64,000 nucleotides of DNA from a virus. The notes beneath the pieces were generated by a model that saw only the letters and a program-made list of their open reading frames with translations, did not search any database and was not told the origin of the DNA. Positions 3,647-61,715 of this stretch are shown piece by piece. The DNA is taken from IMG/VR virus record IMGVR_UViG_3300003316_000274, positions 1 to 64,000 of that record, one strand, 5' to 3'. Numbering within the stretch: the stretch's first letter is position 1; the number at the start of each line of letters is the position of its first letter. Made by a program: the position numbers and the translations under genes.

Positions 3647-4042
3647 TCAAGGCCCGTTGTTCTCCTGCTCGGGCGGCACGGGACACGGTGCTCCCTCCGG
3701 CATGAGGCTGGCCAGGCGGCAGTTCGCTAGATCGACCGCGTCTCTCAGCGAGGCACCCGAGTTCGGCCGCATCTCGTGCTCCAGCCGCCGGAGCCGCTCG
3801 CCGATCGCCACCACGGCGCGTTCGGTGTGCTGGAGCCGTACCAGTACACCGGGCCGGGCCGGGACCCCCGGACGCTCGGGCTCGCCGTACCAGTCCGTCA
3901 GGTACTGGTCCATCCGCCTCCAGAAGCGGATGAGCGCCCGTACGGCCTGCCACAGGCCCGTCCCGATGCCCAAGGCGACGGAGAGCACGCCGCCCCAGAT
4001 GAGGACCTGGTCGAGCAGCCCAATGCCCGTGGGGTCCGGCAT
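3647..4042 (-). CDS. single-pass membrane protein downstream of the endolysin (holin-like or lysis-associated)
   Basis: Internal start MPDPTGIGLLDQVLIWGGVLSVALGIGTGLW of ORF 3647..4216. The ATG shares 1 nt with the endolysin stop (TGATG). One N-terminal TM segment followed by a helical region. Confidence 0.7.
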   Translation of the reverse strand: MPDPTGIGLLDQVLIWGGVLSVALGIGTGLWQAVRALIRFWRRMDQYLTDWYGEPERPGVPARPGVLVRLQHTERAVVAIGERLRRLEHEMRPNSGASLRDAVDLANCRLASLMPEGAPCPVPPEQENNGP

Positions 4043-4884
4043 CAGGACGCCAGCCGCGCGGCGAGCTGGTCGGCGACGAGTTCGGCGATCCGCTTCGCGA
4101 GGGTGGGCTCGGCGGCGATGCGGCTGGCGAGCGCAGCCAGCTGCTCCTCGGTGAGTTCCGGCGCGGAGGCCGCCTTGATGGCGGCCAGCAGGTCGTCGAA
4201 ATGGGAATCCGACCACTCCTGGTAATAGAGGGCCGGGATCGTCCGCGGCTTCCCGTCCGAGCCGAGCCTGAACCGATTGGGGATGCCGTATTCCCAGACG
4301 GCCTTCGCGTACTCAGCAGGGGTGGGCATATCGGTCTCCTCCGGCTCGGTGGGGTCCCAATCGGCTGCGCGGGCGACGATGGCGGGGAACAACGTCGTCC
4401 TGAACTGCGTGATGCGGGCCGCGCCCGGGCAGTCGGTTCCGCCGACCGACCATTCCGGGAACATGGAGTGGTAGCCGAACCCGGGCTCGTCCCAGGTCTG
4501 GCAGATCTTCAGCGGAAGCCCGTGTCGCTGGTGCATCCACACGCCGAGGGCGACGAGGGTCTTGACCTGCTTCGGCGTCCACGGGTCGGAGGAGTCGGTC
4601 TTGCTGGCCGTCTCGACGCTGACCGCGCCGCTACCGTCAGCGCGCCGGTTGGCCTCAGCGTTCGCATCCGCGCGAGTCTCCGTGCCGATGTACTGCCCCA
4701 CCGACCCGTCGTAGTCGACACCGAAGTGCGACTCCAGGGTCGTGGTCTTCCAGTGTTCGAGGAGGCGTTGTTCGTTCCACGGCGCGGCCATGCTGTGAAA
4801 GATGAGCTGCGTGGGGCGGATCGCTGGCTGCGCGTCACTCTCGGGCTGGAGCTCCATTTTCTGCGCCTTCTCCCACCAAGCCAT
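4042..4884 (-). CDS. endolysin, N-acetylmuramoyl-L-alanine amidase (PGRP/amidase_2-like) with C-terminal helical domain
   Basis: Start MAWWEKAQK within ORF 4042..5433. Sequence features: FHSMAAPW..LESHFGVDYDG..GYHSMF..TDCPG, resembling zinc amidase endolysins. 1-nt overlap with the upstream stop. Confidence 0.85.
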   Translation of the reverse strand: MAWWEKAQKMELQPESDAQPAIRPTQLIFHSMAAPWNEQRLLEHWKTTTLESHFGVDYDGSVGQYIGTETRADANAEANRRADGSGAVSVETASKTDSSDPWTPKQVKTLVALGVWMHQRHGLPLKICQTWDEPGFGYHSMFPEWSVGGTDCPGAARITQFRTTLFPAIVARAADWDPTEPEETDMPTPAEYAKAVWEYGIPNRFRLGSDGKPRTIPALYYQEWSDSHFDDLLAAIKAASAPELTEEQLAALASRIAAEPTLAKRIAELVADQLAARLAS

Positions 4885-5177
4885 CAGACACGCTCCAGCC
4901 AGTGCCAGGAGCCGCCCCGTCGCTCCCCGGGCGGAAGTGAGCAGCCGACCCCCTCCGGCTGATGCAGAAAGCTTCCGCCTTCCGCGAGGGAGTGGAAGAA
5001 CAAGCCGCTCGGGTTCTGGACGCACAGACCGACCTGATACGGCTCCTCCGCGTTGACCTCGGTGATGGTCGCGGCACGGCACGTAGCGACGTACGCCTGC
5101 GTACCGTCCGGCCGGATCGGGGTTCCGTGGGACACGTAGTGAACGACCCGGCCGACGGCGGCCGTGGATTGCGTCAA
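4884..5177 (-). CDS. small hypothetical protein
   Basis: ORF 4884..5189. The TTG at 5177 is preceded by GGAGG with a 5-nt spacer, so it is preferred over the TTG at 5189. Confidence 0.6.
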   Translation of the reverse strand: MTQSTAAVGRVVHYVSHGTPIRPDGTQAYVATCRAATITEVNAEEPYQVGLCVQNPSGLFFHSLAEGGSFLHQPEGVGCSLPPGERRGGSWHWLERV

Positions 5178-5205: not shown

Positions 5206-5313
5206 GTCCGGACACTGTCCGGACGCCAGGGGAAGCAGCATCCGGACGCTGCTCCGGACGATCGACGTAATGGACTGTGACCTGCCCGGACACCATCCGG
5301 ACTCGGTCCGGAC
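5206..5313. repeat. array of 7 (N)TCCGGAC sites, 3 of them perfect GTCCGGAC, upstream of the lysis cassette
   Basis: GTCCGGAC at 5206, 5217 and 5306. ATCCGGAC at 5240 and 5295. CTCCGGAC at 5252. GCCCGGAC at 5284. Spacings are mostly 11-12 bp. The array lies in the 5190-5356 intergenic gap. Confidence 0.8.
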
Positions 5314-9605: not shown

Positions 9606-12600
9606 TACCGCTGAGTCCAGACGACGGCGGTCTGGCCGCCGATGGCGTCGATCGAGTTCGGGCCGGTCAGCGCATTGTCGTCGTCGACTGACCATGTCGC
9701 GGTGTAGCCGGCCGGGAGGCCGTTCATCGCGGTGGCGTTGCTGTCGACCACGTTGGCCGTCCCGGACAGGACGGTGAGGGTGACGCTGGTCAAGGTACCC
9801 ACGACGTCCGCCCCGGGCGTCCACGGCGCGTCGGCATCGGCGATGAGCCGTCCCTGCGCGGTGAGGGTGCGCACCGTGTCGTCCGACGGGCACGGCACGA
9901 TGTTGGCCTGTGTGATGGCCGTGCCGGTGACCGCGTCGATGAGGCTGATGGTCCCGTTGGGATTGCGGATCGCCGCGTAGGTGCCACTGCCGGTGTTTGT
10001 ACACCCCGAGCCAACCTGCACCGGGCAGCAGTCGGAGCAGACGCCCACGGTCCCGGTCGGGTTGTACGCGGCGCCGGCCAGGGTGAGGTTCGTCGTGGTC
10101 GTGACCGCGCCGGTCGTGGAGTTGAAGGTGAACCGGCGGATGAACGGGGTGCTGACCCCGGCCCCGGAGACGTCGCAGAGGACTTCCTCCGTGAAGTCGA
10201 AGTCGGTCGCCACCTGCGTGGTGCAGACTGCCACGGCGCCGACCGGCGCGAACGCGGCGCCCGCCAGGGTGGTGTCGGTGAAGCCCAGGACCACGCCGGA
10301 GGTCGCGTCGTACCGGTAGGAGCGCAGGAACCGGGTGCCATTGGCGTCGCAGAGGATCGAGGTCTCGACGTCGCGGTTCTCGCAGAGCTGCACCGTCCCG
10401 GTCGGGGCGTACGCCGCGCCGGCGAGGGTGTAGTTGCTGACGCCGGTGACCGCCCCGGTGGAGTCGCGGCGCACGTCGCGGATGAACGCGGTCGTCGTGC
10501 CGTTGGCCGCCACGTCGCAGAGGATCACGAGGTCCTGCTCCGGCAGGGCCTCGACCACCGGGCACGTCGAGACCGCCCCGACCGGGGCGAAGGCCGCACC
10601 GGCGAGGGTCCGATCCGTGAAGCCGGAGACGATGCCGGCCGCGTCGTAGGCGTACGTGCGCAGGAACCGCGCCCCGGTGCTGTCGCACAGGACCTCCGAC
10701 TCGGCGTCGGCCCGGTCCACGGAGCTGGCGCACACGCCGACCGTGCCAGTCGGCGCGTACGGGGCACCGGCCAGGGTGTAGTTCGTGAAGCCGATGACGG
10801 CGCCGTTCTCGTCCCTCCGGTAGTCCCGGACGAATGGGGTCGCCACGCCGGCGTTGACGTCGCACAGGACGACGATGTCCTGCTCCGGCTGGTCGGCCCC
10901 GGCCGGGCAGGTCGTGACCGTGCCGACCGGGACGTACGTCGCCCCGGTGGTGGCGTTGACCAGGCGTACGGACTCGATCGTGCCGTCAGCGGCGTAGTGG
11001 TACTCGATGAGGACGAGGCCCTGGACGTCCCCGTCGCCATCCACATCGCAGAACGTCCCGGACACCTGCACCGACTGGGAGGTGCTGCACGACATCGCTC
11101 CGGCCGGCGGCGGCCCGGCGGTGAACGCGCCGGTGAGCAGGTTGATCCATCCGTCCTGGGTGAGGACGCCGGTGTCGCAGTCGCGGCGGGCGACCACCCC
11201 GATCGGGGTTCCGTCGGCGAGGCATAGGCCGGTCATCGTGACCGGGTCGCAGACCTCCGCGCACGGCACGATGGTGAAGCCGTCGGCGGTCGGGTCGAGG
11301 AAGTTCCCCAGCGCGTCGAAGAACGCGATCCCGTTCGGCGTGACCGGGGTGTTCGGGATCGAGTCCTGATGCCGCGCCCAACCCGCATGGAGCTCCACGC
11401 CGGTCGACGTCAGCGTGTAGCAGATGGCCTCCCGGTCGGCGCTATCCGGCTCGCACAGCGCGACGGGGCCGACCGGCACGTAGACCGTGGAGCCGTCCAG
11501 CTCGAAGTCCCACAGGCTCGTGCTGACATCGGCGATCGGGCTGCCGAGGTACCGGCGGATGAACTGGTGCCCGCCGTTGCCCTGGTCGCACAGCACCTCT
11601 TCGTAGTACGAGTTCTCCGGGCAGGTCACGATCAGCGGGAACGGGGTGACCTCGACACCGGACTGGTTGTAGACGTGGGCGCCGCCCTCGGCGTCGCGGA
11701 CGAGGAACCCGCGGGCCGACCCGGTGGGGCCCGGGACGGAATAGCAGATCTCCCCGAGGGTGACATCGCCGCCGCAGGTGCCGACCTCTCCGACCGGGGT
11801 GTACGCCGCGCCGGCCAGCGTGAAGTCGCCCTGTGACTTGATCTGTGGCCGGTCGGTGTCGTCGGTCGTCTGCACGTACTTGCGCAGGAAGGGGCCGTTG
11901 TCGTCGCACAGCACCTGGTCCTGCATGAACGCGGTGTCGGTGCAGGACCCGATGAGGTAGGTCGTAGGCGTCTCCACCGGACCGCCGTCCGGCCCGATGA
12001 AGCTGTCCGCGAGCACGCCGCCGGAGGGGTCGGTGATGACGACCCGCTGGAGGTTGGTGCGGACGCCGCCGATGGTCGCGCACACGGGGTAGGTGTGCAC
12101 GAGGTTCGCGGCGACGGAGCCGCCTCCTTCCCCCGATGCCGTCGCCGGGCACGAGCCGGGGACCGGTGCCGGAGCCTGGCCCCAAAACGCCGAGTTCGTC
12201 AGGATCTCGCTGGTCTCCGCGTTCTGCCACGACTCGATGCGGCCGGCCTCGCAGATCGGCGACCACAGCTCGTCCTGGCACACGGTGGTGGTCTCGTCCA
12301 CGGTGACGACGCAGGTGTCATCGTCCGTGGTCGCGGTGGCGCGCTGGTTCGGCCTGTCGACGTAGGCCCTCATGTCCGTGAACAGCCCACCACGGGCGCC
12401 ACCGGCCGGGTTGTTCGTGGACAGCGCCAGCGTGTACGTCTGGCCGCTCACCAGCGGGATCGTCTGGTTGAACGTCGTCCAGGGGCCACCGTTGTAGACG
12501 ACACCGACGTTGTTCGTGGTGTTGTCGATCAGGGTGCCGTTCTGGGCGTCGCCCGTGTCGCCGCTGTCCAGGGTGATGCGGTGGTTCTCGCCGGGGTCAC

Positions 12601-23927: not shown

Positions 23928-25589
23928 TCAGCCGACGGGGCAGGTCTGGACGACCTGGCCGCCTGTGGTGCCGGACGGGCAGACGGGGACGGTCACGAGG
24001 CGGACCGCACCGTCCGGCGCGCGTACGACGGTCGCGACGCACTCTTCGGCGAATGCAGCGGTGTAGTCGTTGGTCTGAAGGCTGGCGTGGTCGTAGACGA
24101 CGCCGAGGTTGATGTCGGCGCCGCGGCCGATCTGGACCTGGCCGGCCGGATAGATCAAGAACTGGATTTCTTCTGGCCACACTGTTGCCGGCGTGGTGCC
24201 GCCGATGACGTTGTTCGCGGGGTCGTTGTCGACGGGGAAGGGCACGTCGGTGATGCCGCGGGCCCACTGCACGCGGACGCCGAGGGACGAGTAGATCGCC
24301 TGGACGTCGGCCGTGGTGACCTCCTCGACGCTGACGCCGTTGCGGCGCGCGACGTCGGCGAGGAAGAGGTTGCGCGTCCACCAGGGGAAGACCACTTCGA
24401 GCGCGATGTTGTCGCACAGGGAGAACCGCTCGATGATGTCGGCGGCCTGGAGCGCGACGGCGGAGTAGACGGCGGACAGCGCGCCGAACGAGGCGGCGAT
24501 CGTGACCGGCGTCGCGGCTGCGGCGACCTGGTTGAGGAGGACCTGGCGGACGCGGATCTCCTGCGCCACCATCGTGAGCGACAGGTAGTGCGCGATCAGC
24601 TCGGGGAAGTGGCGCTGCGTCAGAAGGCCGGCGCGGACGCAGATGCCGACGGCGTCGCAGCGGACCTCGACCGGCTCATCACACGGGACGGTGAAGCACG
24701 GCTTCGGGGTTCCGGCGATGTCCGCGGCCTCGGTGTGCACGAACGTCATGTTGGCGACGTCGAGGACCGGAGTGGGGAAGAAGCGGAGGCCGCCGCGGCG
24801 GAGCTGGACTTCGGGGGCGTCCCACAGCATGTCCGGGCAGGAGATGCTGAGGAAGTCGTACATGGTCTCCGAGGGGGCGCACCAGCCGCCGGAAGCGACG
24901 AGGTCGCCCCCCTTGAGGCGGCTCTGCTTGGAGGCGTACAGGGTGACTGCGGAACCCTCACCCGGGCTTCCGAGGTCATCGACGACGAGCTCCTCGGGGA
25001 ACGGGTGGTGGTAGGACGCGATCAGGCCGGAACCGCCCCCCTGCGACTTGAGAGCGTTGGCGCGGGCGATCGCGCCGGGGACGAGGTCGCCGAGCGCCAT
25101 GGTCTCGCCGGCACGGTAGCCGGGGACGTCGACGGAGGCGGTGATCTCCGGCTTGAGGCGGGCCGGTCCGGGCTCGGGGCTGGTGATCTCCGGGAGGCGC
25201 TTGCGGACCGAGTTGAGGCGCACCAGAGGCTTCTGCGCGATCCGGGTGGACGCGGTGACGTCGTCGGTGACGTCGGTCTCCTCGACGACCGCGGTCTCGG
25301 CCTGGGCGTCGGCCTCGTCGGCGCGGGTCTCTTCCCCGAGGATCTGGGCGGAGAGCTGGGCGATCTCGGCGTTGGCGGCCTCGGCGGCGGCCTGGCGGTT
25401 CGCATGCTCGCCGCGCAGGGTCTCGATGCCTGCGGCGAGGGCGCGCAGGGCGGGGAGGTCTTCGGTGGTGAGGTCGGGGCTCTCCCGCATCGCCTGGAAG
25501 GCGGCGGTGGCGTCGGCGATGTGCTGGTCGAGTTCGTCGGAGGACAGCGCCGTGACGTCTTCGGGAAGGGTGTAGCTCTCGTGGGCCAT
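23928..25589 (-). CDS. major capsid protein with N-terminal coiled-coil (scaffold/delta-like) extension
   Basis: ORF 23928..25589. ATG start 6 nt after AGGAGA. Has an acidic helical N-terminus followed by the GGWCAPSE motif typical of actinophage HK97-fold capsid proteins. Confidence 0.9.
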   Translation of the reverse strand: MAHESYTLPEDVTALSSDELDQHIADATAAFQAMRESPDLTTEDLPALRALAAGIETLRGEHANRQAAAEAANAEIAQLSAQILGEETRADEADAQAETAVVEETDVTDDVTASTRIAQKPLVRLNSVRKRLPEITSPEPGPARLKPEITASVDVPGYRAGETMALGDLVPGAIARANALKSQGGGSGLIASYHHPFPEELVVDDLGSPGEGSAVTLYASKQSRLKGGDLVASGGWCAPSETMYDFLSISCPDMLWDAPEVQLRRGGLRFFPTPVLDVANMTFVHTEAADIAGTPKPCFTVPCDEPVEVRCDAVGICVRAGLLTQRHFPELIAHYLSLTMVAQEIRVRQVLLNQVAAAATPVTIAASFGALSAVYSAVALQAADIIERFSLCDNIALEVVFPWWTRNLFLADVARRNGVSVEEVTTADVQAIYSSLGVRVQWARGITDVPFPVDNDPANNVIGGTTPATVWPEEIQFLIYPAGQVQIGRGADINLGVVYDHASLQTNDYTAAFAEECVATVVRAPDGAVRLVTVPVCPSGTTGGQVVQTCPVG

Positions 25590-25616: not shown

Positions 25617-25669
25617 GCAGGCCCATAACCATCACCGTGCGCGTCGGGGGCAGGCCCATAACCATCACC
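25615..25669. repeat. 22-bp perfect direct repeat x2 in the capsid leader
   Basis: GGGCAGGCCCATAACCATCACC at 25615-25636 and again at 25648-25669. Confidence 0.85.
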
Positions 25670-25697
25670 CGGGGGCATGGTAACGCAGACCGGATAT

Positions 25698-25837
25698 TTC
25701 CGGACAAGGGTGGCTGGATACCCGGACTGTCCGGACGCTCCGTCGACGGACAGTCCGGGTGTTTTGAGCGGCAGCCTCCGAACCTGCGCGGACACCATCC
25801 AGATAGTGTCCGGACGGCGTCCGGACGCCGTCCGGAT
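25698..25837. repeat. array of GTCCGGAC-type sites upstream of the capsid gene
   Basis: TTCCGGAC at 25698. ACCCGGAC at 25720. GTCCGGAC at 25729. GTCCGGGT at 25753. GTCCGGAC at 25808 and 25819. GTCCGGAT at 25830. The last three are spaced exactly 11 bp apart. Confidence 0.85.
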
Positions 25838-25841
25838 GCGG

Positions 25842-26162
25842 TTATCCGCGCTTGCGTGTCTTCAGGCTGACGTCTTCTGCTGCTGGAGCTGCCTCCTGCT
25901 GCGGTTCCTCCTGCGAGGCGACGGCTCCGGCGGCGGGAGTCTCGACGGCCGGGGCGGCGTCGGGATCCGGCTCGATGACGGCGCCCGGGTAGTTGCCCCG
26001 GACCTTCCGCGCGAGGGACACGTCGTGGGTCTGGAACGCGACCTTCCCGGCCCCGCCGTTGGTGACCACCCGGTAGAGAGTGCGGCCGCCGGTTCCCCGA
26101 GCGTACGGCGCAGCCGCCCCGGGGCCCAGCTTCACGCCCTGGCCGCACGATCCGCACGCCAT
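25842..26162 (-). CDS. small protein with N-terminal MACGSCG motif
   Basis: ORF 25842..26162. The ATG overlaps the upstream stop (TGATG). Confidence 0.65.
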   Translation of the reverse strand: MACGSCGQGVKLGPGAAAPYARGTGGRTLYRVVTNGGAGKVAFQTHDVSLARKVRGNYPGAVIEPDPDAAPAVETPAAGAVASQEEPQQEAAPAAEDVSLKTRKRG

Positions 26163-26320
26163 CAGGCACCCACCTTCTGCACTTCGCGCACTGTCGCACC
26201 GTGCTTGGCGCCCATCGCGTCAGCCGTGGTCTTGAACGGCGTCGGCCCGAAGAGCCGCTTCCCGCTCGCGTCGACGACCTCGTACTGAACCGTGTTCTTG
26301 CCGCCGCAGTTGCACGCCAT
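26162..26320 (-). CDS. 52-aa protein with N-terminal MACNCGG motif (not in the ORF track; below the size cut-off)
   Basis: Hand translation gives MACNCGGKNTVQYEVVDASGKRLFGPTPFKTTADAMGAKHGATVREVQKVGA. An AGGAGGAG motif lies 7 nt upstream. Good GC3. Confidence 0.55.
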   Translation of the reverse strand: MACNCGGKNTVQYEVVDASGKRLFGPTPFKTTADAMGAKHGATVREVQKVGA

Positions 26321-37878: not shown

Positions 37879-40527
37879 TCACTTCCCGATAGGACGGCTG
37901 TAGCGGGCCGCTGCCTTCGACGGCCTTCGGGCATCCTGTCCCCGCTTCACCGGGGCGTGGACGGCGGCCTCATCCAGGAGTTCAGCGGCGAACGCCATTG
38001 CCACCGCATCACCGCGGTCCGGGGAGCGGCCGAGGCGGGTGACCAGGTCGTCCTTCGTCTCGATGTGGATCTTCGGCGGGATACCGGTGGTGATGTCCCA
38101 GGTCGGCGCGGTCAGGTCGCTGATCAGGAGGTCATCGGGCGGGAGCATCACCTCGGCGCCGAAGGCGGGGTCGAGGAGCTCGCGGAGGCGGTAGTACGCG
38201 GCGCTGCGCAGGTTGACGTACCCGTATTCGTGGTCGCGAGTCCTGGCCTTGGTCTTCGCTGCGCCCGTGTACGGCAGGACGGGGGCACGTAGCTCGCGCA
38301 GGCGGTCAACGACGCCGCCGCCCACGCCGGCGGAGTCGACGACGGGGATGACGCGGTCCTTCTTCGGGCCGGTGGCGCCCTGCACGCGGGCGGTGGTCTG
38401 CATGGTGTCCTGCCGGTCGTGGATGTCGAGGCGGGTGATGCAGGCGCCGTGACGGTGGGCGAGGACGGTGGAGTCGCCACCGGCGCGGGCGACGTCGACA
38501 CCGATGACGCGACGCCCTTGGAGAGCCGGTCGTCCGGCGTCGTTCCATTCGTGCCAGCGCGCGACGGCAGCCTCGACCCAGGCCAGTGGGATAACGGCGT
38601 CCTCGTCGCTCGCGTGGAACTCGCCGCGGACGCGGTTGGCGTACATGGCGGAGTCGGCACCCCACTGACGCTTGCGCTGCTCCGCCCATTCCCGGCTGAT
38701 CCGGCCGGCGGCGATCGCCTCTTCCAGGGTGACGTGCCGTACCCACCAGTCCTCCAGGCCTGGGGCGCGCTTGTGGATTTCGTAGAACCGGCCGGCTGGC
38801 TGGCCCGGGGTGGAGATGGCGAGGGCGAATGCTTCGGGAAGTCCCTCGGTGCGGCCTCCGGAGAACGCGCCTTCGATCGCGTCCCAAGTGGCGTCGGGGA
38901 CGACCTTGGCCTCGTCGATCAGGTACAGCAGGGAGTCGGCGTGCGCGCCCTCGATGAGCTCGGCCTTGTTGGAGGCGACCGGAGAGGCGGCGCCGTGGAC
39001 GAGCTTCAGGTTCAACGCGAGGAGCTCGCGGATGTCGGAGAACGGCGCGCGGCCGAGAACGTCCCAGCGGATACGCCGCGACCACTTATGGATCTCTGGC
39101 CAGAGGTAGACCGTGAGATGTCTCCAGGCGGACGCGGTGGTGATGACCTTCCAGTCCCACCCCGCGGCTTCGCGTGTAGTCGCGAACCACAGGGTGGTGA
39201 TCGCTGCCAGACCGCTGTTGTGCGTCGGCACCATGGACTCGCCGGCCAGGAACAGGTGTGACGGCGAGTCGACCTCGATGCACTGAGTGGGCTGGTCCTC
39301 CACCTTCCGGATGTCGGTGATGGTCCGTTGGGTGTGCCGGGACGCCTGGGCCCCGGCAGGCTGCCAGTCGTACCGTGGCAGACGGTATGGGTTGAAATCG
39401 AAGCGGGCGGCGATACGCCACCGGCGACCGACTACCCGTCCGTTGATCTTGCTGTCACTCTCCCGGACGCGGACGACCAGGCCGAGCGAGCGCAGCAGGT
39501 CGGCCACGTCGTCGGCCAGTGGCTTGCAGGTGAGGGTGATCTCGTCACAGCCTCCTGCCTGCCGGTATCCGTCGGAGTCCCACAGACCACGCACCAGCTC
39601 CCGTCGCTGCTCCACTGACGCTCGTAGGTAGCTCATGGGGATGTGCTTGTTGCCGAGCACGCCGAGTGCTCGCAGGCGGCCGTTTAGCGACTCTCGTCCC
39701 GGGCCGCCGCCCCGCTGTACGGGCATCGTGGACACGGTGACGCTCAGGGCGTCCGGGTTGCGGCTGTCGCCTCTCGGAGCGCCGTGGTGGTACTCGGCGC
39801 CAGCGATGCGCTCTTGCAGGTACGGCCAGTCGCTGCTGTGCACGACGATCTCGGAGGATCGGGTGCGGCCGTCCCCGAGCCAGTAGCCGAAGAGGTACGG
39901 GTCTACCGGCAAGTCTGCGGCGGGAAGGTTGAGCGGGCGCGCGGTCGGGATGCGCCACCGGGGCTGGCCGCCTGCTGTCCGCAGGTGCTTGGCCATGTGG
40001 GCGGTGGTTACGCGCTTGGTCGCGTCCCAGTGGTCGCGCCAGTCCTTGACCGTGATGGGCCGGCGGTTCGGGCGAGGGGTCTTCGGCCGGTTGTAGACGT
40101 CGACGGCGTTCCACTCGTGCTCGCCGTGGGTCGTGATGACGGTCCCGTCGGCGAACTCCACCACGTAGGTGTCGGCGTTCCAGACGGGCGACTTGGCGAC
40201 GACCCGGCATCGCTTGCCGTGCTCGTCAAACAGCTCGTCACCAGGGCGCAGTGCGCCGATTGTTGACCATCCGGTCGGGGTCGGAATCCTCACATTGCAT
40301 TGTAGAGCCTTGCCTAGGCCGTGAGGGCCGCGTACGGCCACCCGCTTCTTCGTCGGCAGGGCGTTTAGGACGTCGTTCTGGTAGGGGGTCAGGCCGCCTG
40401 TAGGGCCCCAGTCGATGACGTCGCGTGCCCAGGCGACCGGGTCGTACCTCCACGAGGTGCGCTGGCTGTCCAGGGCGAAGGACCGGCCGGCGTGCGCCCA
40501 GGGGTCGATGTCAGCTGGGTTCGGCAT
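37879..40527 (-). CDS. terL: terminase large subunit, interrupted by an intein in the Walker A P-loop
   Basis: Start MPNPADIDPW at 40527 within ORF 37879..41073. The upstream 182 aa overlap terS in an R/P/S-rich shadow frame. Exteins join as VAVRGPHGLGK|SGLAAITTLWF. The C-terminal part carries a nuclease-like region. Confidence 0.9.
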   Translation of the reverse strand: MPNPADIDPWAHAGRSFALDSQRTSWRYDPVAWARDVIDWGPTGGLTPYQNDVLNALPTKKRVAVRGPHGLGKALQCNVRIPTPTGWSTIGALRPGDELFDEHGKRCRVVAKSPVWNADTYVVEFADGTVITTHGEHEWNAVDVYNRPKTPRPNRRPITVKDWRDHWDATKRVTTAHMAKHLRTAGGQPRWRIPTARPLNLPAADLPVDPYLFGYWLGDGRTRSSEIVVHSSDWPYLQERIAGAEYHHGAPRGDSRNPDALSVTVSTMPVQRGGGPGRESLNGRLRALGVLGNKHIPMSYLRASVEQRRELVRGLWDSDGYRQAGGCDEITLTCKPLADDVADLLRSLGLVVRVRESDSKINGRVVGRRWRIAARFDFNPYRLPRYDWQPAGAQASRHTQRTITDIRKVEDQPTQCIEVDSPSHLFLAGESMVPTHNSGLAAITTLWFATTREAAGWDWKVITTASAWRHLTVYLWPEIHKWSRRIRWDVLGRAPFSDIRELLALNLKLVHGAASPVASNKAELIEGAHADSLLYLIDEAKVVPDATWDAIEGAFSGGRTEGLPEAFALAISTPGQPAGRFYEIHKRAPGLEDWWVRHVTLEEAIAAGRISREWAEQRKRQWGADSAMYANRVRGEFHASDEDAVIPLAWVEAAVARWHEWNDAGRPALQGRRVIGVDVARAGGDSTVLAHRHGACITRLDIHDRQDTMQTTARVQGATGPKKDRVIPVVDSAGVGGGVVDRLRELRAPVLPYTGAAKTKARTRDHEYGYVNLRSAAYYRLRELLDPAFGAEVMLPPDDLLISDLTAPTWDITTGIPPKIHIETKDDLVTRLGRSPDRGDAVAMAFAAELLDEAAVHAPVKRGQDARRPSKAAARYSRPIGK
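39217..40308 (-). mobile_element. 364-aa intein with LAGLIDADG homing endonuclease; class-3 (WCT)-like signature
   Basis: Starts ALQCNVRIPTPTGWSTIGAL and ends VPTHN|S. Block B is TTHGEHEW. LAGLIDADG motifs are LFGYWLGDGRT and LVRGLWDSDGY. Block F is PTQCIEVDSPSHLFLAG. The first codons are GC3-poor (CTA CAA TGC AAT). Confidence 0.8.
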
Positions 40528-41321: not shown

Positions 41322-42062
41322 TCAGGGGAGATCGGCGATGAGGACCGTGGCGTTGTCAGCGCGCGTGGTGGCGTGGTCGATGGCGGCCTGGACGAAGTCG
41401 TGGGCGGCGTGTGCGGGGGTACCGGTGAGGTAGTCGGCGAGGTTGCGGCAGGAATCCTCCAGGGGCTCGTACGCGCCGTCGGACGCGAGGAGGAGTCGGT
41501 GAGGGCCGTTGTCGAGGGCGAGGGTGGTGGACTCGATGGCGGGGTGCCCGTACTGGGCCTTGACCTCGTCGTCGGTCTCGTAGGCGCCGAGGCAGGAGGT
41601 GAGGAGGTTGCGGTTGCCGCCGGGGCTGGTGGGGTAGCTCGTGCCGGGCGGGTAGACGCGGCGGAGGTTGTGGTCCTGGGTGAGGCGCCGGAGGGTGGTG
41701 CCGGTGAAGAGGTAGGCGCGGGAGTCGCCGCACCAGGCGACGGTGAGGTTCCGGCCGTTGATGACGGCGACGACTGCGGCGGCCTGCGGGAGATCGGGGC
41801 CGTACGGGCCGCGCCGGGCAGGTTCGGCGGCGTACTGGTCGTAGACAGCGCGCAGTCCAGTTTCGGCGTCGGCATGTCGGGCGGCGGCCTGCGCGAGGCG
41901 CACGGCGCCGGTGCGGGCCCAGTCGCGGACTTCGTCGTTGGAGCCGATGCCGTCGAAGAGGACGTAGGCGCGGGTGACACCGTCGGGGTTGGTGCGGGTG
42001 GCGGTGGCGTCGCACTGATGAGTGCGGTCACCGATGAGCTGGGCGGTCGCGTGAGTACGCAT
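41322..42062 (-). CDS. PP2C-family Ser/Thr protein phosphatase
   Basis: Start MRTHATAQL within ORF 41322..42116. Motifs: FDGIGS, WCGDSRAYLF, LTQDHN, LLASDGAYE, ADNATVLIADL. Confidence 0.85.
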   Translation of the reverse strand: MRTHATAQLIGDRTHQCDATATRTNPDGVTRAYVLFDGIGSNDEVRDWARTGAVRLAQAAARHADAETGLRAVYDQYAAEPARRGPYGPDLPQAAAVVAVINGRNLTVAWCGDSRAYLFTGTTLRRLTQDHNLRRVYPPGTSYPTSPGGNRNLLTSCLGAYETDDEVKAQYGHPAIESTTLALDNGPHRLLLASDGAYEPLEDSCRNLADYLTGTPAHAAHDFVQAAIDHATTRADNATVLIADLP

Positions 42063-42121
42063 GGAGCCCCCTGAGGTTCTGATCTTGTGGTGGCGGTGGG
42101 GTGCCGGGCGAGGCACCGTGG

Positions 42122-42279
42122 GTCCGGACGCGTCCGGAGGGTGGTGTCCGGATCTGTCCGGACGGGTGGGGTTAGGGGGCCTCGGTGGACCGGTGTCCGG
42201 ATGATGTCCGTGCAGGTCAGTGAGGTCTCCGGAAGTGTCCGCCGGGCGGTGTCCGGACGCCGGTGGATGGCGTCCGGGT
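42122..42279. repeat. array of GTCCGGAC-type sites upstream of the PP2C gene
   Basis: GTCCGGAC at 42122, 42156 and 42251. GTCCGGAG at 42132. GTCCGGAT at 42146 and 42195. CTCCGGAA at 42227. GTCCGGGT at 42272. Degenerate GTCCGTGC and GTCCGCCG also occur. Spacing within pairs is 10 bp. Confidence 0.85.
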
Positions 42280-43551: not shown

Positions 43552-43842
43552 ATGCGGCGTATGAGCGACTACACCCCCAGCCCCCCTCTGGCCGCGAAGC
43601 TGGCCCAGTGGGCCGAACTGGAGAAGACCCGGGACGAACTCCGCGTCGAACTGCGCGGGCTCATCGCGGAAGACCTGAAGAACACAGGCGTGACCGCGGA
43701 GGAAATGGCCGCGCACGTGCCGTGGACCAGGGAGACCGTCCGGGGCATCGCCCGCGAGTACGCGGTCCCGCACAAGCGCAAACCGACCGTCCGCTCCATC
43801 AAGCCGCAGAAGCGCACCACCGGGAGGAAGTCCTCCGGCTGA
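43552..43842 (+). CDS. small HTH-like DNA-binding protein (Cro, repressor or Xis-like candidate)
   Basis: Start MRRMSDYTPS within ORF 43447..43842 (an alternative ATG is at 43561). Contains VTAEEMAAHVPWTRETVRGIAREY and a basic tail. Confidence 0.6.
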   Translation: MRRMSDYTPSPPLAAKLAQWAELEKTRDELRVELRGLIAEDLKNTGVTAEEMAAHVPWTRETVRGIAREYAVPHKRKPTVRSIKPQKRTTGRKSSG

Positions 43843-44928: not shown

Positions 44929-46050
44929 CTATTCTCCGGCCGCTCTGGGCATCGGGATGACGGCCGCATCCGGGCTCTCGTTCTCGGCCGATTCTCCACC
45001 TGAATCAGGGGGCGAATCAGTGGCCGGTTTCGATGCTGAAATGACCCTCGGACCGGGGGTTTTATCCGGTACTAGATGAGGGGGCAGATTGACCCTCCGC
45101 CCGAGACTTTTCGCAAGGTCGTCCACGTGTACGCCAGGTACGTTCTGCTGCCTCCACTTCCCCCCCTCCGGGGTGACCGTCAGCACGTGGAATTTCATCT
45201 GATCGCGCACGGTCAAACCCGCCCTTTGCAGCAGCACCGTCATGGCCTTCCGGTCATAGCCTGGAAGGCCTCCGTTTTCCTGCTGCTCAGCCAGTAGATC
45301 ATCGACACGGGCGCCCTTTCCGCGAAGGCCTTCTCTGTGGCCTTCCGCGCATTCCGCAACGCGCTCTTCGACGTACCGAACCAGGCGATCACGGATAACT
45401 TCCCATGGCTCCCCTGCCGGTTTTCCGGATTCTCCGACAGGAGATTCCTCGGGCTGCTCCCCCGCGTTCTCGTCATGATCATCCTCAGTGTGGGCGGCCT
45501 CCTCTGGGGCGAAGCAGACGGCGCCGGTGCACCACGCGATGATCAGGGCGGCGACGATCCAGCCTCGGTACGGGGCGACGTAGACCCACACGCCGGCGAG
45601 CACACCACCGAGGACGGAGAGCCCCAGGGCCGCGACGAAGAGGCCCATGGCGAGGCGCTCCGCCACGTCGCCGATCCCGGCCGGCCCCGTGGTCCTTGCG
45701 GTGGACGCGGCCGGGGTGTCGTCCTCGGCCTTCTCGCTCTTCTCGCCCTTGTTCCTGCTCTCCTGCGTCTCGGCGGGAGCGGCGGGCTTCGCCTCGCTGC
45801 TCTGCGTCCGGGAGGCCGCCTTCAGCGCTTTCCAGATCGTCGCGACGATCCAGCGGGCCAGGACGGGGCTCCCGGAGGCAACCGCCGCGACGAGGGCCTT
45901 CAGCGGCGCCAGGACCTCCTCACGCAGGACTTTCCGGAGTTCCTCTTCTTCCGTCTTCCGGGGATTCGTCTCGGGCTTGGCCGGGATGTCTTCCCCGGCC
46001 GCGCCCGGGTCCGGCTCGGGGTGGCTGCGCTTGGCCAGGTCGAAGGTCAT
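44929..46050 (-). CDS. membrane protein (charged N-terminus, central TM cluster, soluble C-terminal domain)
   Basis: ORF 44929..46050. The 3' half visibly uses more A/T-ending codons than its neighbours. Confidence 0.75.
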   Translation of the reverse strand: MTFDLAKRSHPEPDPGAAGEDIPAKPETNPRKTEEEELRKVLREEVLAPLKALVAAVASGSPVLARWIVATIWKALKAASRTQSSEAKPAAPAETQESRNKGEKSEKAEDDTPAASTARTTGPAGIGDVAERLAMGLFVAALGLSVLGGVLAGVWVYVAPYRGWIVAALIIAWCTGAVCFAPEEAAHTEDDHDENAGEQPEESPVGESGKPAGEPWEVIRDRLVRYVEERVAECAEGHREGLRGKGARVDDLLAEQQENGGLPGYDRKAMTVLLQRAGLTVRDQMKFHVLTVTPEGGKWRQQNVPGVHVDDLAKSLGRRVNLPPHLVPDKTPGPRVISASKPATDSPPDSGGESAENESPDAAVIPMPRAAGE

Positions 46051-46051
46051 G

Positions 46052-46531
46052 TCAGCCTCCGGAGATCTTCGCGGCGAGCATGCGGATGATGTTGACGACG
46101 ATGCCGGGGATACCGCCGGCCTGACCGGCGAGGACGGCTCCGGCCAGACCGAGGAGGGCGGGCCACAGCATTCGCTTCTTCCACGGCCACGCCCAGGCGA
46201 TGAGGAGCAGGATGCAGGCGGAGCCGCCGAGGCCCGGGTCGCCGAAGCCGGTGTCGGTGGTCAGGCCCAGGCCGACCTCGCCCATGCTGTTGCCGAAGTC
46301 GCCCCAGGTGCCTCCGGCGGCCATCCACAGCGTGCCGGTGAGGAATCCCCAGAGGAGGGCCTGGTCCTTGTTGTTGATCTTGATGCGGTCGCTGCCCCGC
46401 AGGCCTGCGACGAAGGCGATCGTGGACAGGCCGGCGAGGGCGGAGATCGTGATGGGTCCGGCGAGTTGCAGGCCGTGGATGCCCGGTGCTGCGGTGACGT
46501 GGGTGTGGGCGGCGGCGAAGGTGGTGTGCAC
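46052..46531 (-). CDS. polytopic membrane protein
   Basis: ORF 46052..46531 with G/A/L/W-rich hydrophobic segments. Confidence 0.75.
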   Translation of the reverse strand: MHTTFAAAHTHVTAAPGIHGLQLAGPITISALAGLSTIAFVAGLRGSDRIKINNKDQALLWGFLTGTLWMAAGGTWGDFGNSMGEVGLGLTTDTGFGDPGLGGSACILLLIAWAWPWKKRMLWPALLGLAGAVLAGQAGGIPGIVVNIIRMLAAKISGG

Positions 46532-46541
46532 GGGGGGCCTT

Positions 46542-47411
46542 TCAGACGACGGGGGTTCCCGTGTAGTGGGCGGTTGCGAGGAGGATGGATGCCAGGGGGA
46601 TCCTCACGACCCATCGGGCGAGTGCGGGCAGGTGACGGACACGCCGGTCCAGCACCCACCACACGCCGTAGCCCAGGCCCAGCGTGGTCAGCAGGAGGCT
46701 GATGGCGTTGGGGCCGAGGCCCCATTCCTGGCCGTAGGCGTTGAGCCACGCGACGAGAGCGGGAGCAAAGCGGCGTCCGACTTCGGCGGCGCCGACGGCG
46801 ATGAGGATCCGGGAGATCAGCGGGAAGGGCAGGACGTACTGCACGGCCGGAGAGCGGGTGACCATCCACGAGCCGTAGACCCCGCCGGCGGCCGTGAACA
46901 GACTGACCGTGCCGACCGCGCCGGCCTCGGCAGCCGGCAGGACATCGTTGACGAGCGAAACCAGCCCGACGCCGTAGCCAACCATCCCGGCGGACACGTT
47001 GAACGCGACGATCCGCATCCGGCGGTCCTCGGACACGCCGTGCGCCACCTTCCGGACCGCAGTCCGCTTAGGCTCCCTCTTGCCCGTGCCCTTCCGCACC
47101 GGGGCATCTGACGTGGGCGCTGTCTCCACCGCCTCGTGCTTAGGCGACACAGGTTCGCCGGCGTCGTCCGGCTCTTCAGGGCCGTCGTCCTGGACGTCGC
47201 CGGGGTCAGGATCGACGCTCAAGTGCGGGCGGCCGGTGCGCCACCAGTCGGTCACGCGCGGCGAGGACTGCGGCTGCTGCGGCATCGGCAACTCGACGGG
47301 AACCTGCGCCCCCGGCTCCTCACCCGGCTCGCTGGAATCGCCGTGGCCAGCCGGGCGGGCTCCGAGTCCGCCAAGGATGCGCTGTGTCCAGCGCTCGTGC
47401 GCGGAGGTCAC
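46542..47411 (-). CDS. polytopic membrane protein with acidic/Pro-rich N-terminal region
   Basis: The GTG at 47411 (VTSAHERW) overlaps the upstream stop (GTGA), within ORF 46542..47582. Confidence 0.7.
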   Translation of the reverse strand: MTSAHERWTQRILGGLGARPAGHGDSSEPGEEPGAQVPVELPMPQQPQSSPRVTDWWRTGRPHLSVDPDPGDVQDDGPEEPDDAGEPVSPKHEAVETAPTSDAPVRKGTGKREPKRTAVRKVAHGVSEDRRMRIVAFNVSAGMVGYGVGLVSLVNDVLPAAEAGAVGTVSLFTAAGGVYGSWMVTRSPAVQYVLPFPLISRILIAVGAAEVGRRFAPALVAWLNAYGQEWGLGPNAISLLLTTLGLGYGVWWVLDRRVRHLPALARWVVRIPLASILLATAHYTGTPVV

Positions 47412-48040: not shown

Positions 48041-48727
48041 TCACCTTCCGAGGTAGGGCGGCAGCAAGCGGGCCGCGATAGTGACGAAGTTCGATGGGCG
48101 CTGGCGGGGCAGCCGCTCCGCGTCGAGGCGGCGCAGGACCGTGCAGGCGTCGACGGCCGCGACGATGTGGATGCCGTTGAGCCGGTACTCGCCGCCGTTG
48201 GCCAGCCGGCCGTCGATGATCGCGACGGGTACGGGGTGTGTGCTGAGGAGGCTCGCGACGGCGCGGGCTCCGCGCTTCAGGCCGTCGAGCCGGTCGGTGA
48301 CGTCTCGGTTGTCGTGCCACAGCCGGCCGCCGTGGACGCGCACCGTGTGGCGGGCGGACATCCTCTTCGGGTCGAGGATGTACACGTGGCCGCGCGGGCT
48401 GATGGCGAGGGCGTCGATGTTCGTCGAGCCGGTCGGCAGCCTGCGGTCGTACAGGATCGTCCAGCCGTCGCGGTCGAGTTCGGCCAGGAGCTCGGCGACG
48501 TACTGCTCTCCTCTGGCCCCGGCCTCGTAGCGGTCGGCGAGCTGCCCGGCCTGGGTGGGGATGTTCAGTGCGGTGGCCAGCCGGGTCAGGGGGGTGCGTA
48601 GTTCCTGCGCGCGGGCCAGCGCCGAGGCGCCGGGAGCGCCCGGCTTCGGCCGGCGTCCGGGGCGCCCCAGTCGGTTCCAGGCGTAGATCGCGGCAGCGAT
48701 GAGGGCTACGGCCGTCGGAAGGGACAT
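48041..48727 (-). CDS. membrane-anchored NERD (nuclease-related) domain protein
   Basis: Start MSLPTAVALIAAAIYAW within ORF 48041..48931. Contains GARGEQYVAELLAELDRDGWTILYDRRLPTGSTNIDALAISPRGHVYILDPK. Confidence 0.75.
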   Translation of the reverse strand: MSLPTAVALIAAAIYAWNRLGRPGRRPKPGAPGASALARAQELRTPLTRLATALNIPTQAGQLADRYEAGARGEQYVAELLAELDRDGWTILYDRRLPTGSTNIDALAISPRGHVYILDPKRMSARHTVRVHGGRLWHDNRDVTDRLDGLKRGARAVASLLSTHPVPVAIIDGRLANGGEYRLNGIHIVAAVDACTVLRRLDAERLPRQRPSNFVTIAARLLPPYLGR

Positions 48728-48842: not shown

Positions 48843-48995
48843 TCACCAGGCGTCGTAGTAGACGAGGGAGGCGACGAGAGCGGCCAGGGCCACCCAGCTG
48901 CCGAGGGGCGCCAGATCACGGGGCTTGCCACGCACCGCGTAATAGAGGCCGAGGAGGCCGCTGACCTGGACGACGTAGATAAGAGGGGGGATCAC
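48843..48995 (-). CDS. 50-aa membrane peptide
   Basis: The GTG at 48995 overlaps the upstream stop (GTGA). Sequence is VIPPLIYVVQVSGLLGLYYAVRGKPRDLAPLGSWVALAALVASLVYYDAW. Confidence 0.45.
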   Translation of the reverse strand: MIPPLIYVVQVSGLLGLYYAVRGKPRDLAPLGSWVALAALVASLVYYDAW

Positions 48996-61700: not shown

Positions 61701-61715
61701 TCGAGGAGACAGCCG

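Follow-up and report, generated by a model that had tools for sequence, protein, structure and literature searches.

The window analysed here, a stretch of 64,000 nucleotides, is part of a ~75.4-kb temperate siphovirus genome that was recovered as a circular assembly. The virus falls in a clade of Streptomyces phages, and a co-directional gene train of ~60 kb starts at the early promoter on the Cro side and ends with the genes for lysis. Encoded in the other ~11 kb are an integrase of the tyrosine type, a CI/Cro pair, YqaJ, RecT, RusA and WhiB. The Pfam records of L115 and L117, together with our own scans, cover ~38 kb of the ~75 kb; L115 and L117 themselves take in little of the structural block and are separated by 1.2 kb. 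Megablast of 24-28 kb of the window against GenBank phages gave no match, and profile searches (Pfam, PHROGs, PDB) of ~30 window proteins returned only PP2C and weak matches. The Samy prophage has a serine integrase and is set beside phiC31 in its paper; by description only, it was deemed to lie outside the clade.

A short palindrome, GTCCGGAC, recurs across the window. The initial annotation had counted 18 perfect copies, placed 16 of them in five tight clusters and pointed to an exact 11-bp ladder at 25808-25840. Its coordinates proved exact, the ladder is confirmed, and 16 of the 18 copies do have a neighbour within 160 bp, in five clusters. Shuffled sequences contain 4.5±2.0 copies (largest 13), and 0 of 100 shuffles reach 18; when copies are placed at random, at least 8 of 18 with a neighbour within 160 bp already has P ~0.002. 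These shuffles and placement simulations rule out chance or composition as the source of the arrays. Copies paired at a distance of 11 bp (TCCGGAC-N4-TCCGGA, with at most one mismatch) are present 12 times against 0.23 expected. Tandem Repeats Finder, as an independent check, found repeats with a period of 11 bp at 5286-5313, 25808-25836 and 49345-49392, and with a period of 24 bp at 42118-42170. One-mismatch copies had also been ascribed to each cluster; they are enriched inside the clusters but not over the whole window (87 against 85 expected). A literature search for the octamer retrieved primers only.

Table 1. Arrays and associated genes, in coordinates of the window.
Feature	Position	Strand	Description
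Lysis cassette	small gene 4884-5177; amidase 4042-4857	both minus	Amidase_2
Array A	5206-5313	no strand	3 perfect and 4 one-mismatch sites; intergenic
Array B (flagged)	25698-25837	no strand	3 perfect, 2 one-mismatch and several decayed in-phase copies; intergenic, between small gene 25842-26162 and major capsid gene 23928-25589 (minus)
Array C	42122-42279	no strand	3 perfect and 3 one-mismatch sites; intergenic, 59 nt upstream of PP2C phosphatase gene 41322-42062 (minus)
Regulator proposed initially	43561-43842	+ (called reverse-strand)	small helix-turn-helix protein
Array D	49198-49391	no strand	4 perfect sites in SpdB_N gene 48992-50101 (minus)
Candidate binder 2 (weak)	50826-51233	minus	135 aa, conserved ITRGEYAL-LRR motif
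Regulator proposed initially	51428-51760	+ (called reverse-strand)	small helix-turn-helix protein
Array E' (decayed)	52565-52593	no strand	directly downstream of gene 52597-53055 (minus)
Gene downstream of array E	53146-53508	minus	three-helix protein with long third helix
Array E	54181-54321	no strand	3 perfect and 3 one-mismatch sites in last ~50 codons of 54169-54801 (minus)
Candidate binder 1 (weak)	54169-54801	minus	hypothetical protein, invariant GLLWLINR...GWSL core
Other palindromes	60830-60940	no strand	four GGGACT-N3-AGTCCC in linker of 60124-61407 (minus); period 22

Each array (Table 1) consists of 3-8 copies of YGTCCGGACR, some of them decayed, at multiples of ~11.1 bp. Array A separates the last tail-fibre-like gene from the lysis cassette. 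Array C precedes a PP2C gene that is the first of a block with the small and large terminase genes. Array D is found in the proline-rich linker of a membrane protein with an SpdB_N domain (PF27080). The initial placement of the arrays ahead of functional blocks holds, but only A, B and C are intergenic, whereas D and E lie within genes.

A check for the arrays in relatives, as proposed in the initial annotation, located them at the same, syntenic positions in 20 or more related contigs of Streptomycetaceae prophages or phages (40-75% amino acid identity). Cultivable carriers among these are Streptomyces sp. A1136 (NZ_SSBJ01000015, L130) and Actinacidiphila sp. ITFR-21 (CP134608.1, L250). Counterparts of array A occur upstream of the homologue of the small lysis-cassette gene (L005, L032). 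Those of array B precede the capsid homologue by 500-900 bp in L007, L013, L018, L020, L039 and L067, as well as L068, L071, L078, L079, L081 and L084, mostly within the 3' end of a MuF/protease fusion gene. Array D has counterparts in the homologous SpdB_N linker (L034, L036, L037), and array E has them 120-700 bp upstream of the 53146-53508 homologue (L034, L130, L243, L245, L249, L250). The degenerate sixth cluster that had been listed, array E', is real in that two relatives (L027, L250) carry perfect pairs at this position; a third (L130) has sites near its 52597-53055 homologue. The cultured, syntenic relative TurkishDelight contains only 2 sites in 93.6 kb and no arrays, and neither a ranking of clustered k-mers nor a repeat search in its genome revealed a substitute motif. 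Since TurkishDelight and other syntenic relatives do without arrays, the system is evidently dispensable or replaceable.

The full site is a 10-bp palindrome, YGTCCGGACR, as seen in a family logo of 152 sites. Its core, TCCGGA, was the search seed and is thus fixed by construction, so that only the flanks are informative: the G and C beside the core are ~88% conserved, with Y and R outside them. Such symmetric conservation of the flanks is as expected if the reader is a dimer. Variant positions are concentrated at the outer bases of the site. All but one of the 16 clustered copies are followed by G on the + strand, as was reported initially, which places a C 5' of the motif on the coding strand, but this asymmetry is absent from the family logo, for which strand assignment at the related loci is approximate.

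Spectral power in the window has its maximum at 11.0-11.25 bp (12.3), as it does in 48 loci of capsid homologues chosen without regard to the motif (29). Distances between sites in those loci fall near 11, 23, 34, 45, 56, 66, 78, 90, 101 and 111 bp. As the ~11.1-bp period is held over more than 100 bp, the sites share one face of the DNA helix.

Within genes, the motif always falls in linkers or tails, where it is read as SGQ, RPD or VRT/IRT, that is, in all three frames. Two of these (SGQ, RPD) are used in array D and all three in array E. Peptide repeats as an explanation are ruled out by this use of three frames and by the presence of the motif in non-coding DNA. Because coding linkers read the motif in every frame, the constraint is on the DNA, and selection evidently acts at that level and not on the peptide. 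Disordered protein linkers can thus be overprinted with regulatory DNA in all three frames, as the arrays show, which is relevant to gene annotation and to the engineering of these phages, or of their integrases, as tools.

Transcribed palindromes could pair into long hairpins, and the initial annotation had offered processing or attenuation of mRNA as an alternative. Between blocks of cistrons, the arrays might then be processed by RNase III, stabilise the transcript or attenuate it, for which T7 provides a precedent. The arrays do fall between functional blocks of the long co-directional gene train, adjacent copies can form an 8-bp stem with a 3-nt loop, and the transcript of array B has a predicted folding energy of -92.1 kcal/mol against -63.1±4.5 for shuffles (z = -6.4). 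However, a run of palindromes folds strongly by default, and pairing does not explain a constant ~11.1-nt period over more than 100 nt. It is the octamer sequence itself, not mere complementarity, that is conserved at 40-50% amino acid identity, and the clustering of variants at outer positions is expected for a site read by a protein. Array D lies 400-600 nt before the stop codon of its host gene, so that cleavage there would destroy that message. Further, the same arrays act on DNA as origin iterons elsewhere (see below), and Rfam covariance models run over the whole window at gathering thresholds gave 0 matches. On this analysis, hairpins in RNA seem highly improbable as the basis of the arrays.

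These results support the general idea put forward initially, that the arrays are dispersed, conserved, helically phased sites for protein binding on DNA ahead of functional blocks. We consider it most plausible, with a probability of about 0.45, that they resemble operators, bound cooperatively by a dimeric protein through which the passage of transcription into the middle and late modules is gated. Each array would be a docking platform on which every palindrome is bound by one dimer of a sequence-specific protein, and neighbouring dimers would touch to build a cooperative nucleoprotein tract of 60-150 bp. Such tracts would form before the conserved 53146/52597 gene pair (arrays E and E'), inside the SpdB gene ahead of a NERD and membrane-protein block (D), and before the PP2C/terminase block (C), the capsid gene (B) and the lysis cassette (A). 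Their most likely role would be to control entry of transcription into these modules. Occlusion or a roadblock is favoured as the mechanism, and would add a second genome-wide layer of repression or timing apart from the CI/Cro switch, because the last site of array E adjoins the ribosome binding site of the next gene (AAGGAGG) and the gene-proximal site of array A ends 18 nt before GGAGG. The last site is 15 nt from the ATG at 54165 in array E and 28 nt from a TTG start codon in array A, and in L250 the distance to the start codon is 16 nt, so that there is no space for a promoter downstream of the array. Activation is possible at arrays B and C. No sigma-70 promoter or intrinsic terminator consensus was detected at A, B or C, although a consensus scan is weak evidence in an actinomycete genome of 70% GC. 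Against this preferred reading, each of the five products tested for co-occurrence with the arrays is also found in array-free phages or contigs, unrelated phages use the same phased motif as an origin iteron, syntenic relatives do without arrays, and none of the arrays belongs to the tail genes.

Several gene products were considered as the binder. The 54169-54801 product was modelled as helix-helix-beta-hairpin-helix (pLDDT 59 overall, 86-88 in the core), and its modelled core resembles a winged helix. Arrays occur in or beside its gene in the window and in L036, L047 and L243. A Foldseek search of the model against PDB returned no significant match. It was not retained as the binder, given the low-confidence model and TurkishDelight gp83, which has the same core in a genome with no arrays or other repeats. 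The 50826-51233 product occurs in array-bearing contigs only (6 in the profile and L037) and in none of the array-free relatives; it matched nothing in Pfam or PDB. Other early or middle products seen solely in array-bearing contigs are g37, g39-41 and g25. The 53146-53508 product, of which ~50 homologues are known, has an invariant RPAW..YGPP.R tail, and its model (pLDDT 85) had no match in PDB. Arrays lie upstream of its gene in 7 contigs, but it was rejected as the binder on account of its homologue in L251, which keeps every invariant residue in a contig with no array within 20 kb.

The two regulators suggested by the initial annotation are both disfavoured. The 43561-43842 product (listed there as 43552) has 17 homologues with a common LPW(S/T)xETVRGIAREY..P.KRKPTVRSIKP region, and three unrelated contigs of 30-46 kb encode the same recognition region with no arrays within ±10 kb. 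In those three contigs the gene adjoins a GIY-YIG gene, which suggests a mobile cassette. For the 51428-51760 product, the helix-turn-helix of gp91 from the array-free TurkishDelight is near-identical to that of the L036 and L243 homologues. Also rejected were the CI-like immunity repressor, which has no sites at its own switch, and the C-terminal domain of the SpdB_N protein, which is conserved in TurkishDelight.

The arrays could instead be iterons for an initiator-type winged-helix protein, serving as extra origins, as origin-enhancing sites or as sites of handcuffing and copy control. Precedents are the ori/crr of P4, where crr enhances the origin, and incA of P1, which acts in handcuffing and copy control. 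At least 17 unrelated viral contigs (GC 0.39-0.70) carry (T)GTCCGGAC(A) units with 11-bp spacing in the linkers of replication-initiator genes. These initiators belong to several families, including Lin1244_N (34 bits), Phage_rep_org_N (22.5 bits, just below the cut-off) and DUF1376-like proteins, and some of the genes are followed by a DnaC/IstB-like loader. Origin iterons in initiator genes, of the lambda O/ori or replisome-organiser type, resemble the arrays in having an 8-10-bp palindrome, a period of ~11 bp and a linker-coding location, and those of the unrelated contigs share the very same sequence. The tandem, phased architecture of the arrays agrees with that of iterons, and array E is placed in the tail of a possible winged-helix gene in the replication and recombination region. 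However, the phage has its own recognisable initiator-like gene, 60124-61407, and the linker of this gene contains different iterons; the 60830-60940 palindromes there probably mark the phage's origin.

Origin iterons also differ from the arrays in number and placement. One (or two) loci per replicon would be expected beside an AT-rich or low-complexity unwinding element, whereas the phage has five to six arrays over 50 kb, mostly in middle and late genes, four of them among the SpdB, packaging, capsid and lysis genes. Array B is flanked by no AT-rich unwinding element (minimum GC of 58% in 50-bp windows). Iteron arrays of a similar kind are built from another palindrome, GACCGGTC, which was used as a control, in 18 other contigs, and since only 256 eight-base palindromes exist in total, the sharing of the motif with iterons may be coincidence. 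We regard replication iterons as an unlikely explanation. It is doubtful, too, though conceivable, that an origin-type module has evolved into an iteron regulon, in which one protein, of phage or host, would coat phased arrays genome-wide, those within disordered linkers of coding genes included. Equally doubtful is the proposal that such a regulon couples replication with middle and late timing and perhaps with SpdB-mediated handling of phage DNA in the mycelium.

The presence of an array inside the SpdB_N gene, which is seen in four phages, raises another possibility. The arrays might be centromere-like loci (of the ParR/parC, omega or N15 SopB type) or clt-like loci. ParR/parC of R1 and omega of pSM19035 use ribbon-helix-helix dimers on tandem 7-11-bp units, and the resulting cooperative coat overlaps promoters; the omega protein controls several dispersed promoters, and the parC architecture consists of tandem 11-bp units. 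The arrays share the tandem short units, but they are built of palindromes, not of direct or heptad repeats, and can occupy coding sequence. The search of the phage yielded neither par genes nor a protein recognisable as ribbon-helix-helix. Neither ParA, ParM, SopA nor a ParB domain appears in the L115/L117 Pfam records, and ParA, ParM, SopA and TraB/FtsK-type ATPases are likewise missing from those records and the annotation of the rest of the window, which extend over all but 1.2 kb of the genome.

With SpdB-like proteins, an extrachromosomal or newly injected genome might be partitioned, or pumped between hyphal compartments, and there are parallels for this among Streptomyces plasmids. Their clt loci are arrays of direct 8-bp repeats read by TraB, an FtsK-like protein encoded beside them, and SpdB2 homologues of actinophages have been proposed to aid the spread of phage DNA (PMC4447253). 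SpdA2 binds a palindrome repeated in its own gene and affects plasmid stability (PMC4170104). The SpdA2/sps system of pIJ101 resembles the arrays in that a short palindrome is present in 2-3 copies in a coding region of a Streptomyces mobile element with spd genes, serves as the binding site of a protein that the element encodes, and has been conserved despite divergence of the proteins (PMC4170104). It differs in using a 12-bp palindrome of another sequence, CGTCACGTGACG, at a single locus, in every case the gene of the binder itself. The phage has no recognisable SpdA homologue, and none of the window translations was seen to have an SpdA-like N-terminus. TraB recognition sequences are direct and non-palindromic, unlike the motif, and no FtsK/TraB-like gene was recognised in the annotated or Pfam-covered parts of the ~75-kb genome, although a TraB of the host or of an AICE might be used. 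In favour of this reading, one relative, L250, is on a separate 103.5-kb record (CP134608.1); against it, the phage carries a tyrosine integrase. In addition, TurkishDelight has a full-length SpdB homologue and no arrays, and the SpdB genes of L249 and L250 are free of arrays although both contigs carry E and E'. A role in segregation, or in the transfer of DNA between compartments, therefore seems improbable.

To our knowledge, almost nothing has been established on middle and late gene control in Streptomyces phages beyond phiC31. A conserved cis-element common to dozens of Streptomycetaceae prophages provides a direct experimental handle: an array can be used as bait for the binder, synonymous positions in the SpdB linker can be mutated as a test of function, and the element can be used to find and classify prophages of the clade. 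If the arrays are roadblocks, then genome-wide silencing of the stoperator kind would have arisen in actinophages a second time and independently.

The stoperators of cluster A mycobacteriophages, with which the arrays had been compared initially, are single asymmetric sites of 13-14 bp, 20-35 per genome, that are oriented with transcription and identical to the operator of the immunity repressor at the early lytic promoter. The likeness lies in many copies of one motif near gene boundaries of a co-directional temperate actinophage genome, and a block to transcription is plausible for the arrays too. The analogy fails beyond this. The phage sites are symmetric 10-mers, gathered in phased arrays at 5-6 loci (16 of 18 copies in five arrays), and both the CI/Cro switch and the immediate-early region as a whole are free of them. 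Neither GTCCGGAC nor TCCGGA occurs in or around the divergent intergenic region of the CI-like and Cro-like genes, and no array was found in the ~11 kb outside the window, of which all but the 1.2 kb between L115 and L117 was covered.

The SARP and OmpR/PhoB type of site, also invoked initially, consists of 2-3 direct repeats of 6-7 bp with 11-bp spacing, at or beside the -35 element. This comparison does not hold either, as the units are palindromes, of which an array can have as many as 8 in a span of more than 100 bp, and some arrays end at a Shine-Dalgarno sequence, 15-28 nt from the start codons at E and A. No gene for a SARP or a winged-helix response regulator is present in the L115/L117 Pfam records or our own scans (~38 kb of ~75 kb), although a regulator encoded by the host is conceivable. 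Ogr of P2 and C of Mu each act on one type of dyad-symmetric site before packaging, head and lysis operons, with one site per promoter at about -55. The arrays share this repeated use of one dyad-symmetric site before the same kinds of operon, and differ in having up to 8 sites each, some reaching the ribosome binding site and some lying within middle genes.

The octamer GTCCGGAC occurs 18 times in the window, as had been counted by eye in the initial annotation; dinucleotide-preserving shuffles contained 4.5 ± 2.0 copies (maximum 13), and none of 100 reached 18. Sixteen copies fall within the five clusters first described, and 16 of the 18 have a neighbor within 160 bp, where under random placement even 8 of 18 has a probability of about 0.002. 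Core pairs 11 bp apart (TCCGGAC-N4-TCCGGA, at most one mismatch) number 12 against 0.23 expected, and Tandem Repeats Finder independently found period-11 arrays. One-mismatch copies, said to accompany each cluster, do concentrate there, most of them differing at the two outer positions, but they are not enriched window-wide (87 versus 85 expected).

The 152 clustered sites, drawn from the window and from 25 related loci, yield the consensus YGTCCGGACR, which is perfectly palindromic over 10 bp. Its central TCCGGA is invariant by construction, because it served as the search seed; the G and C flanking it are about 88% conserved. The flank asymmetry claimed earlier, a C on the 5' side on the coding strand, holds in the window (15 of 16 copies) but not family-wide, where strand assignment in the related loci is approximate. 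Core distances pile up near 11, 23, 34, 45, 56, 66, 78, 90, 101 and 111 bp, and the helical phasing first suggested by eye is recovered as a sharp spectral peak at 11.0-11.25 bp (power 12.3 in the window, and 29 across 48 capsid-homologue loci chosen by protein similarity, not by motif). Decayed copies lie in phase between strong sites. The arrays are thus structures arranged on one face of the helix of double-stranded DNA.

Forty-eight loci emerged when 2.9 million viral contigs were scanned for pairs of copies spaced 11 bp. Some 20 of them encode proteins related to those of the window (40-75% identity) and have arrays at the same places. The shared places are upstream of the capsid homologue, usually within the 3' end of the MuF/protease gene; in the SpdB linker of two related contigs (L034, L036) and of the otherwise distant L037; in or adjoining the homologue of gene 54169-54801 (L036, L047, L243); and upstream of the lysis-cassette gene (L005, L032). 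Among the 48 motif-independent capsid relatives, strict arrays lie 550-900 bp upstream of the capsid gene in seven, and arrays whose left halves are degenerate (e.g., CCCGGACA) in four more. Further carriers, identified by genome scans and context look-ups, are Streptomyces sp. A1136, a Streptomyces contig (L249) and a 103.5-kb Actinacidiphila record. The latter (CP134608.1, 103,521 bp, Actinacidiphila sp. ITFR-21) carries strong E and E' arrays and is separate from the chromosome; it could represent a phage-plasmid, or else a plasmid with an integrated prophage.

Within genes, the motif is translated in all three frames (SGQ/SGR, RPD, VRT/IRT), always in linkers or tails, so selection acts on the DNA. 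The trait is lineage-specific: in the cultured, syntenic phage TurkishDelight the 93.6 kb contain 2 sites, with no substitute motif found, the 68.4-kb Mischief19 record lacks TCCGGA throughout its first 50 kb, and BG-cluster phages have none of the sites. The feature is real, far from random, conserved and selected at the level of DNA. We found no published description of these arrays in the open-access literature.

Two further observations concern the motif elsewhere. In Mischief19, a capsid relative of the window phage (MK686071.1, bases 1-50000, ~70% GC), about 16 TCCGGA would be expected by a hand estimate from base composition; their absence suggests that a BspEI/AccIII-type restriction site is strongly avoided there, whereas the window phage does not avoid it. 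In a gammaproteobacterial Rhodanobacteraceae MAG (JANPJV01), GTCCGGAC-N3-GTCCGGAC pairs occur on many contigs (L147, L191, L199, L201 and ~15 other loci), spaced 35-38 bp in the first three and 92 bp in L201. They seem to form a dispersed repeat family that has no relation to the phage clade.

By exact protein matches, the window lies on a soil-metagenome contig of 75,379 bp; another assembly, of 75,402 bp, has a different start point, implying a circular or terminally redundant molecule. Codon-bias gene calls place almost all window genes on the minus strand, and homologues of the proteins come from Streptomyces, Kitasatospora and Actinacidiphila. Encoded outside the window are a tyrosine integrase, a divergent CI-like/Cro-like helix-turn-helix pair, YqaJ, RecT, RNase T, RusA and WhiB. 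No further arrays were present in the remaining 11 kb as read in two loci separated by a 1.2-kb gap. Actinophage homologues of SpdB2 may, according to a published suggestion, help phage DNA to spread through the mycelium (PMC4447253).

Arrays and other features of the window, with order of transcription
Feature	Coordinates	Strand	Order	Remarks
Small PhD-like antitoxin-type gene, then 149-aa protein	61491-62165	plus		Weak GIY-YIG match and PhdYeFM_antitox domain in second protein; possible toxin-antitoxin or homing module, with expression presumed in the lysogen
Initiator-like gene	60124-61407	minus	1	After early genes; winged-helix-like segment at N-terminus
Four GGGACT-N3-AGTCCC palindromes	60830-60940			15 bp each, spaced 21-47 bp, in linker of initiator-like gene
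Array E	54181-54321		2	Followed by conserved gene pair
Array E' (decayed)	52565-52593		2	After conserved gene pair
Array D	49198-49391		3	Inside SpdB_N gene
SpdB_N, NERD-domain and multi-pass membrane proteins	48992-50101, 48041-48727, 44929-47411		3	One block; SpdB_N is a plasmid-type spread protein
Array C	42122-42279		4	Followed by PP2C, small terminase, large terminase with intein-like insertion
Large terminase	37879-40527	minus	4	882 aa; only residues 437-876 align with the 547-aa TurkishDelight terminase (73% identity); extra N-proximal segment (CNVRIPTPTGW...) reads like a Hint/intein insertion
Tape measure, portal, MuF/protease fusion, two small genes			5	
Array B	25698-25837		6	Followed by capsid and tail genes
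Exact 21-bp direct repeat GGCAGGCCCATAACCATCACC	25621-25641, 25652-25672	plus		Copies 31 bp apart, between array B and capsid start codon
Array A	5206-5313		7	Followed by lysis genes

We consider the arrays to be protein-binding arrays on DNA, with a probability of roughly 0.8. The alternative raised initially, that adjacent copies form RNA hairpins for processing or attenuation, finds an echo in the predicted fold of the array B transcript, which is very stable (z = -6.4), although this is expected from any run of palindromes. The period is constant at ~11.1 bp across 100 bp, the sequence itself is conserved beyond its pairing potential, the pattern of variants points to the inner core being read, array D lies mid-gene, and there is no Rfam match; RNA elements are thus very improbable.

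The last site of array E abuts AAGGAGG, 15 nt before the ATG, that of array A stops 18 nt short of GGAGG and 28 nt short of the start codon, and that in the Actinacidiphila record ends 16 nt ahead of a start codon. No promoter fits downstream of arrays so near to starts; the array would either overlap the local promoter or be met by transcription reading through from upstream. The last site of array B is 108 nt from the ATG, and array C stops 59 nt short of the PP2C start codon; activation is possible at both. No sigma-70 consensus promoter or intrinsic terminator was identified at A, B or C, which is weak evidence at 70% GC. Given this geometry and the 60-kb co-directional gene train, the arrays would fit occlusion or roadblock gates better than upstream activating sites. 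That they gate transcription of the middle and late modules is a tentative proposal, to which we give slightly less than even odds.

Candidate binders were assessed by whether they track the arrays. Neither regulator proposed in the initial annotation does so. The 51428 homologue of array-free TurkishDelight, gp91, has a helix-turn-helix nearly identical to those of the L036 and L243 homologues, and among 17 homologues that share the recognition region of the 43561 product (annotated initially as 43552), three sit beside a GIY-YIG gene on longer contigs that are array-free over ±10 kb. Also rejected was the SpdB_N protein, conserved as a full-length homologue in TurkishDelight. Four phages have arrays within or adjacent to the gene for the 54169-54801 product (helix-helix-beta-hairpin-helix in a low-confidence model, nothing significant in Foldseek); the same core is kept in TurkishDelight without arrays. 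The 53146 product belongs to a family of ~50 Streptomycetaceae prophage proteins with arrays 120-700 bp upstream in seven contigs, and was rejected as the homologue in contig L251 keeps every invariant residue with no array in 20 kb. In this family (53146-53508, alignment A2) a 47-residue helix precedes the invariant C-terminal motif RPAW..YGPP.R, a tail that resembles a peptide for docking to a conserved host partner; the confident AlphaFold model has no PDB match. In a presence/absence table of 10 array-bearing versus 4 array-free genomes, the 50826-51233 product is exclusive to array bearers (6-7 positives, 0 negatives) and has no detectable family or fold. The only others exclusive to them are 43561, the membrane proteins 44929-47411 and a small protein (26162-26320). 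It is possible that the binder is a host protein.

The 43561-43842 product, a small helix-turn-helix protein whose tail, KRKPTVRSIKP, hardly varies, is also encoded in three otherwise unrelated phage contigs (L246, L247 and L248, at about 10001-10550), where a GIY-YIG gene follows on the reverse strand. The two genes look like a mobile cassette; the window has a 587-bp gap at the expected site of the partner. L248 also has type IV CRISPR Csf genes.

The other loci of the viral scan belong to unrelated phages (GC 0.39 to 0.70), in which (T)GTCCGGAC(A) units with 11-bp spacing are found in linkers of replication-initiator genes (Lin1244_N, Phage_rep_org_N at a borderline score, DUF1376-like and others), in some cases just ahead of an IstB/DnaC-like loader. 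This matches the classic arrangement of an origin inside the initiator gene. With no more than 256 possible eight-base palindromes, the shared octamer is probably coincidence or convergence; similar arrays of GACCGGTC, a control palindrome matched in composition, occur at 18 loci. The shared architecture is nevertheless informative, being the one that DNA shows where dimers of a small DNA-binding domain align cooperatively. The palindromes in the phage's own initiator-like gene probably mark its replication origin, and since they differ from GTCCGGAC, we rejected the arrays as the origin of that protein. Their half-sites resemble the DosR/DevR box (GGGACT..AGTCCC), but with a 3-nt spacer here.

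Compared with known systems, the arrays do not group with the stoperators to which they were initially likened, as no sites occur at the CI/Cro switch; nor are there any at immediate-early genes. The likeness to SARP/OmpR sites was similarly not upheld. The arrays also fall outside par centromeres and TraB clt, and centromere- or clt-like sites are an unlikely explanation. Replication iterons, a doubtful reading, are matched in architecture but not in context. Other possibilities share the small probability that is left. The arrays would best be described as phased operator or iteron arrays, but dispersed and partly overprinted on coding linkers.
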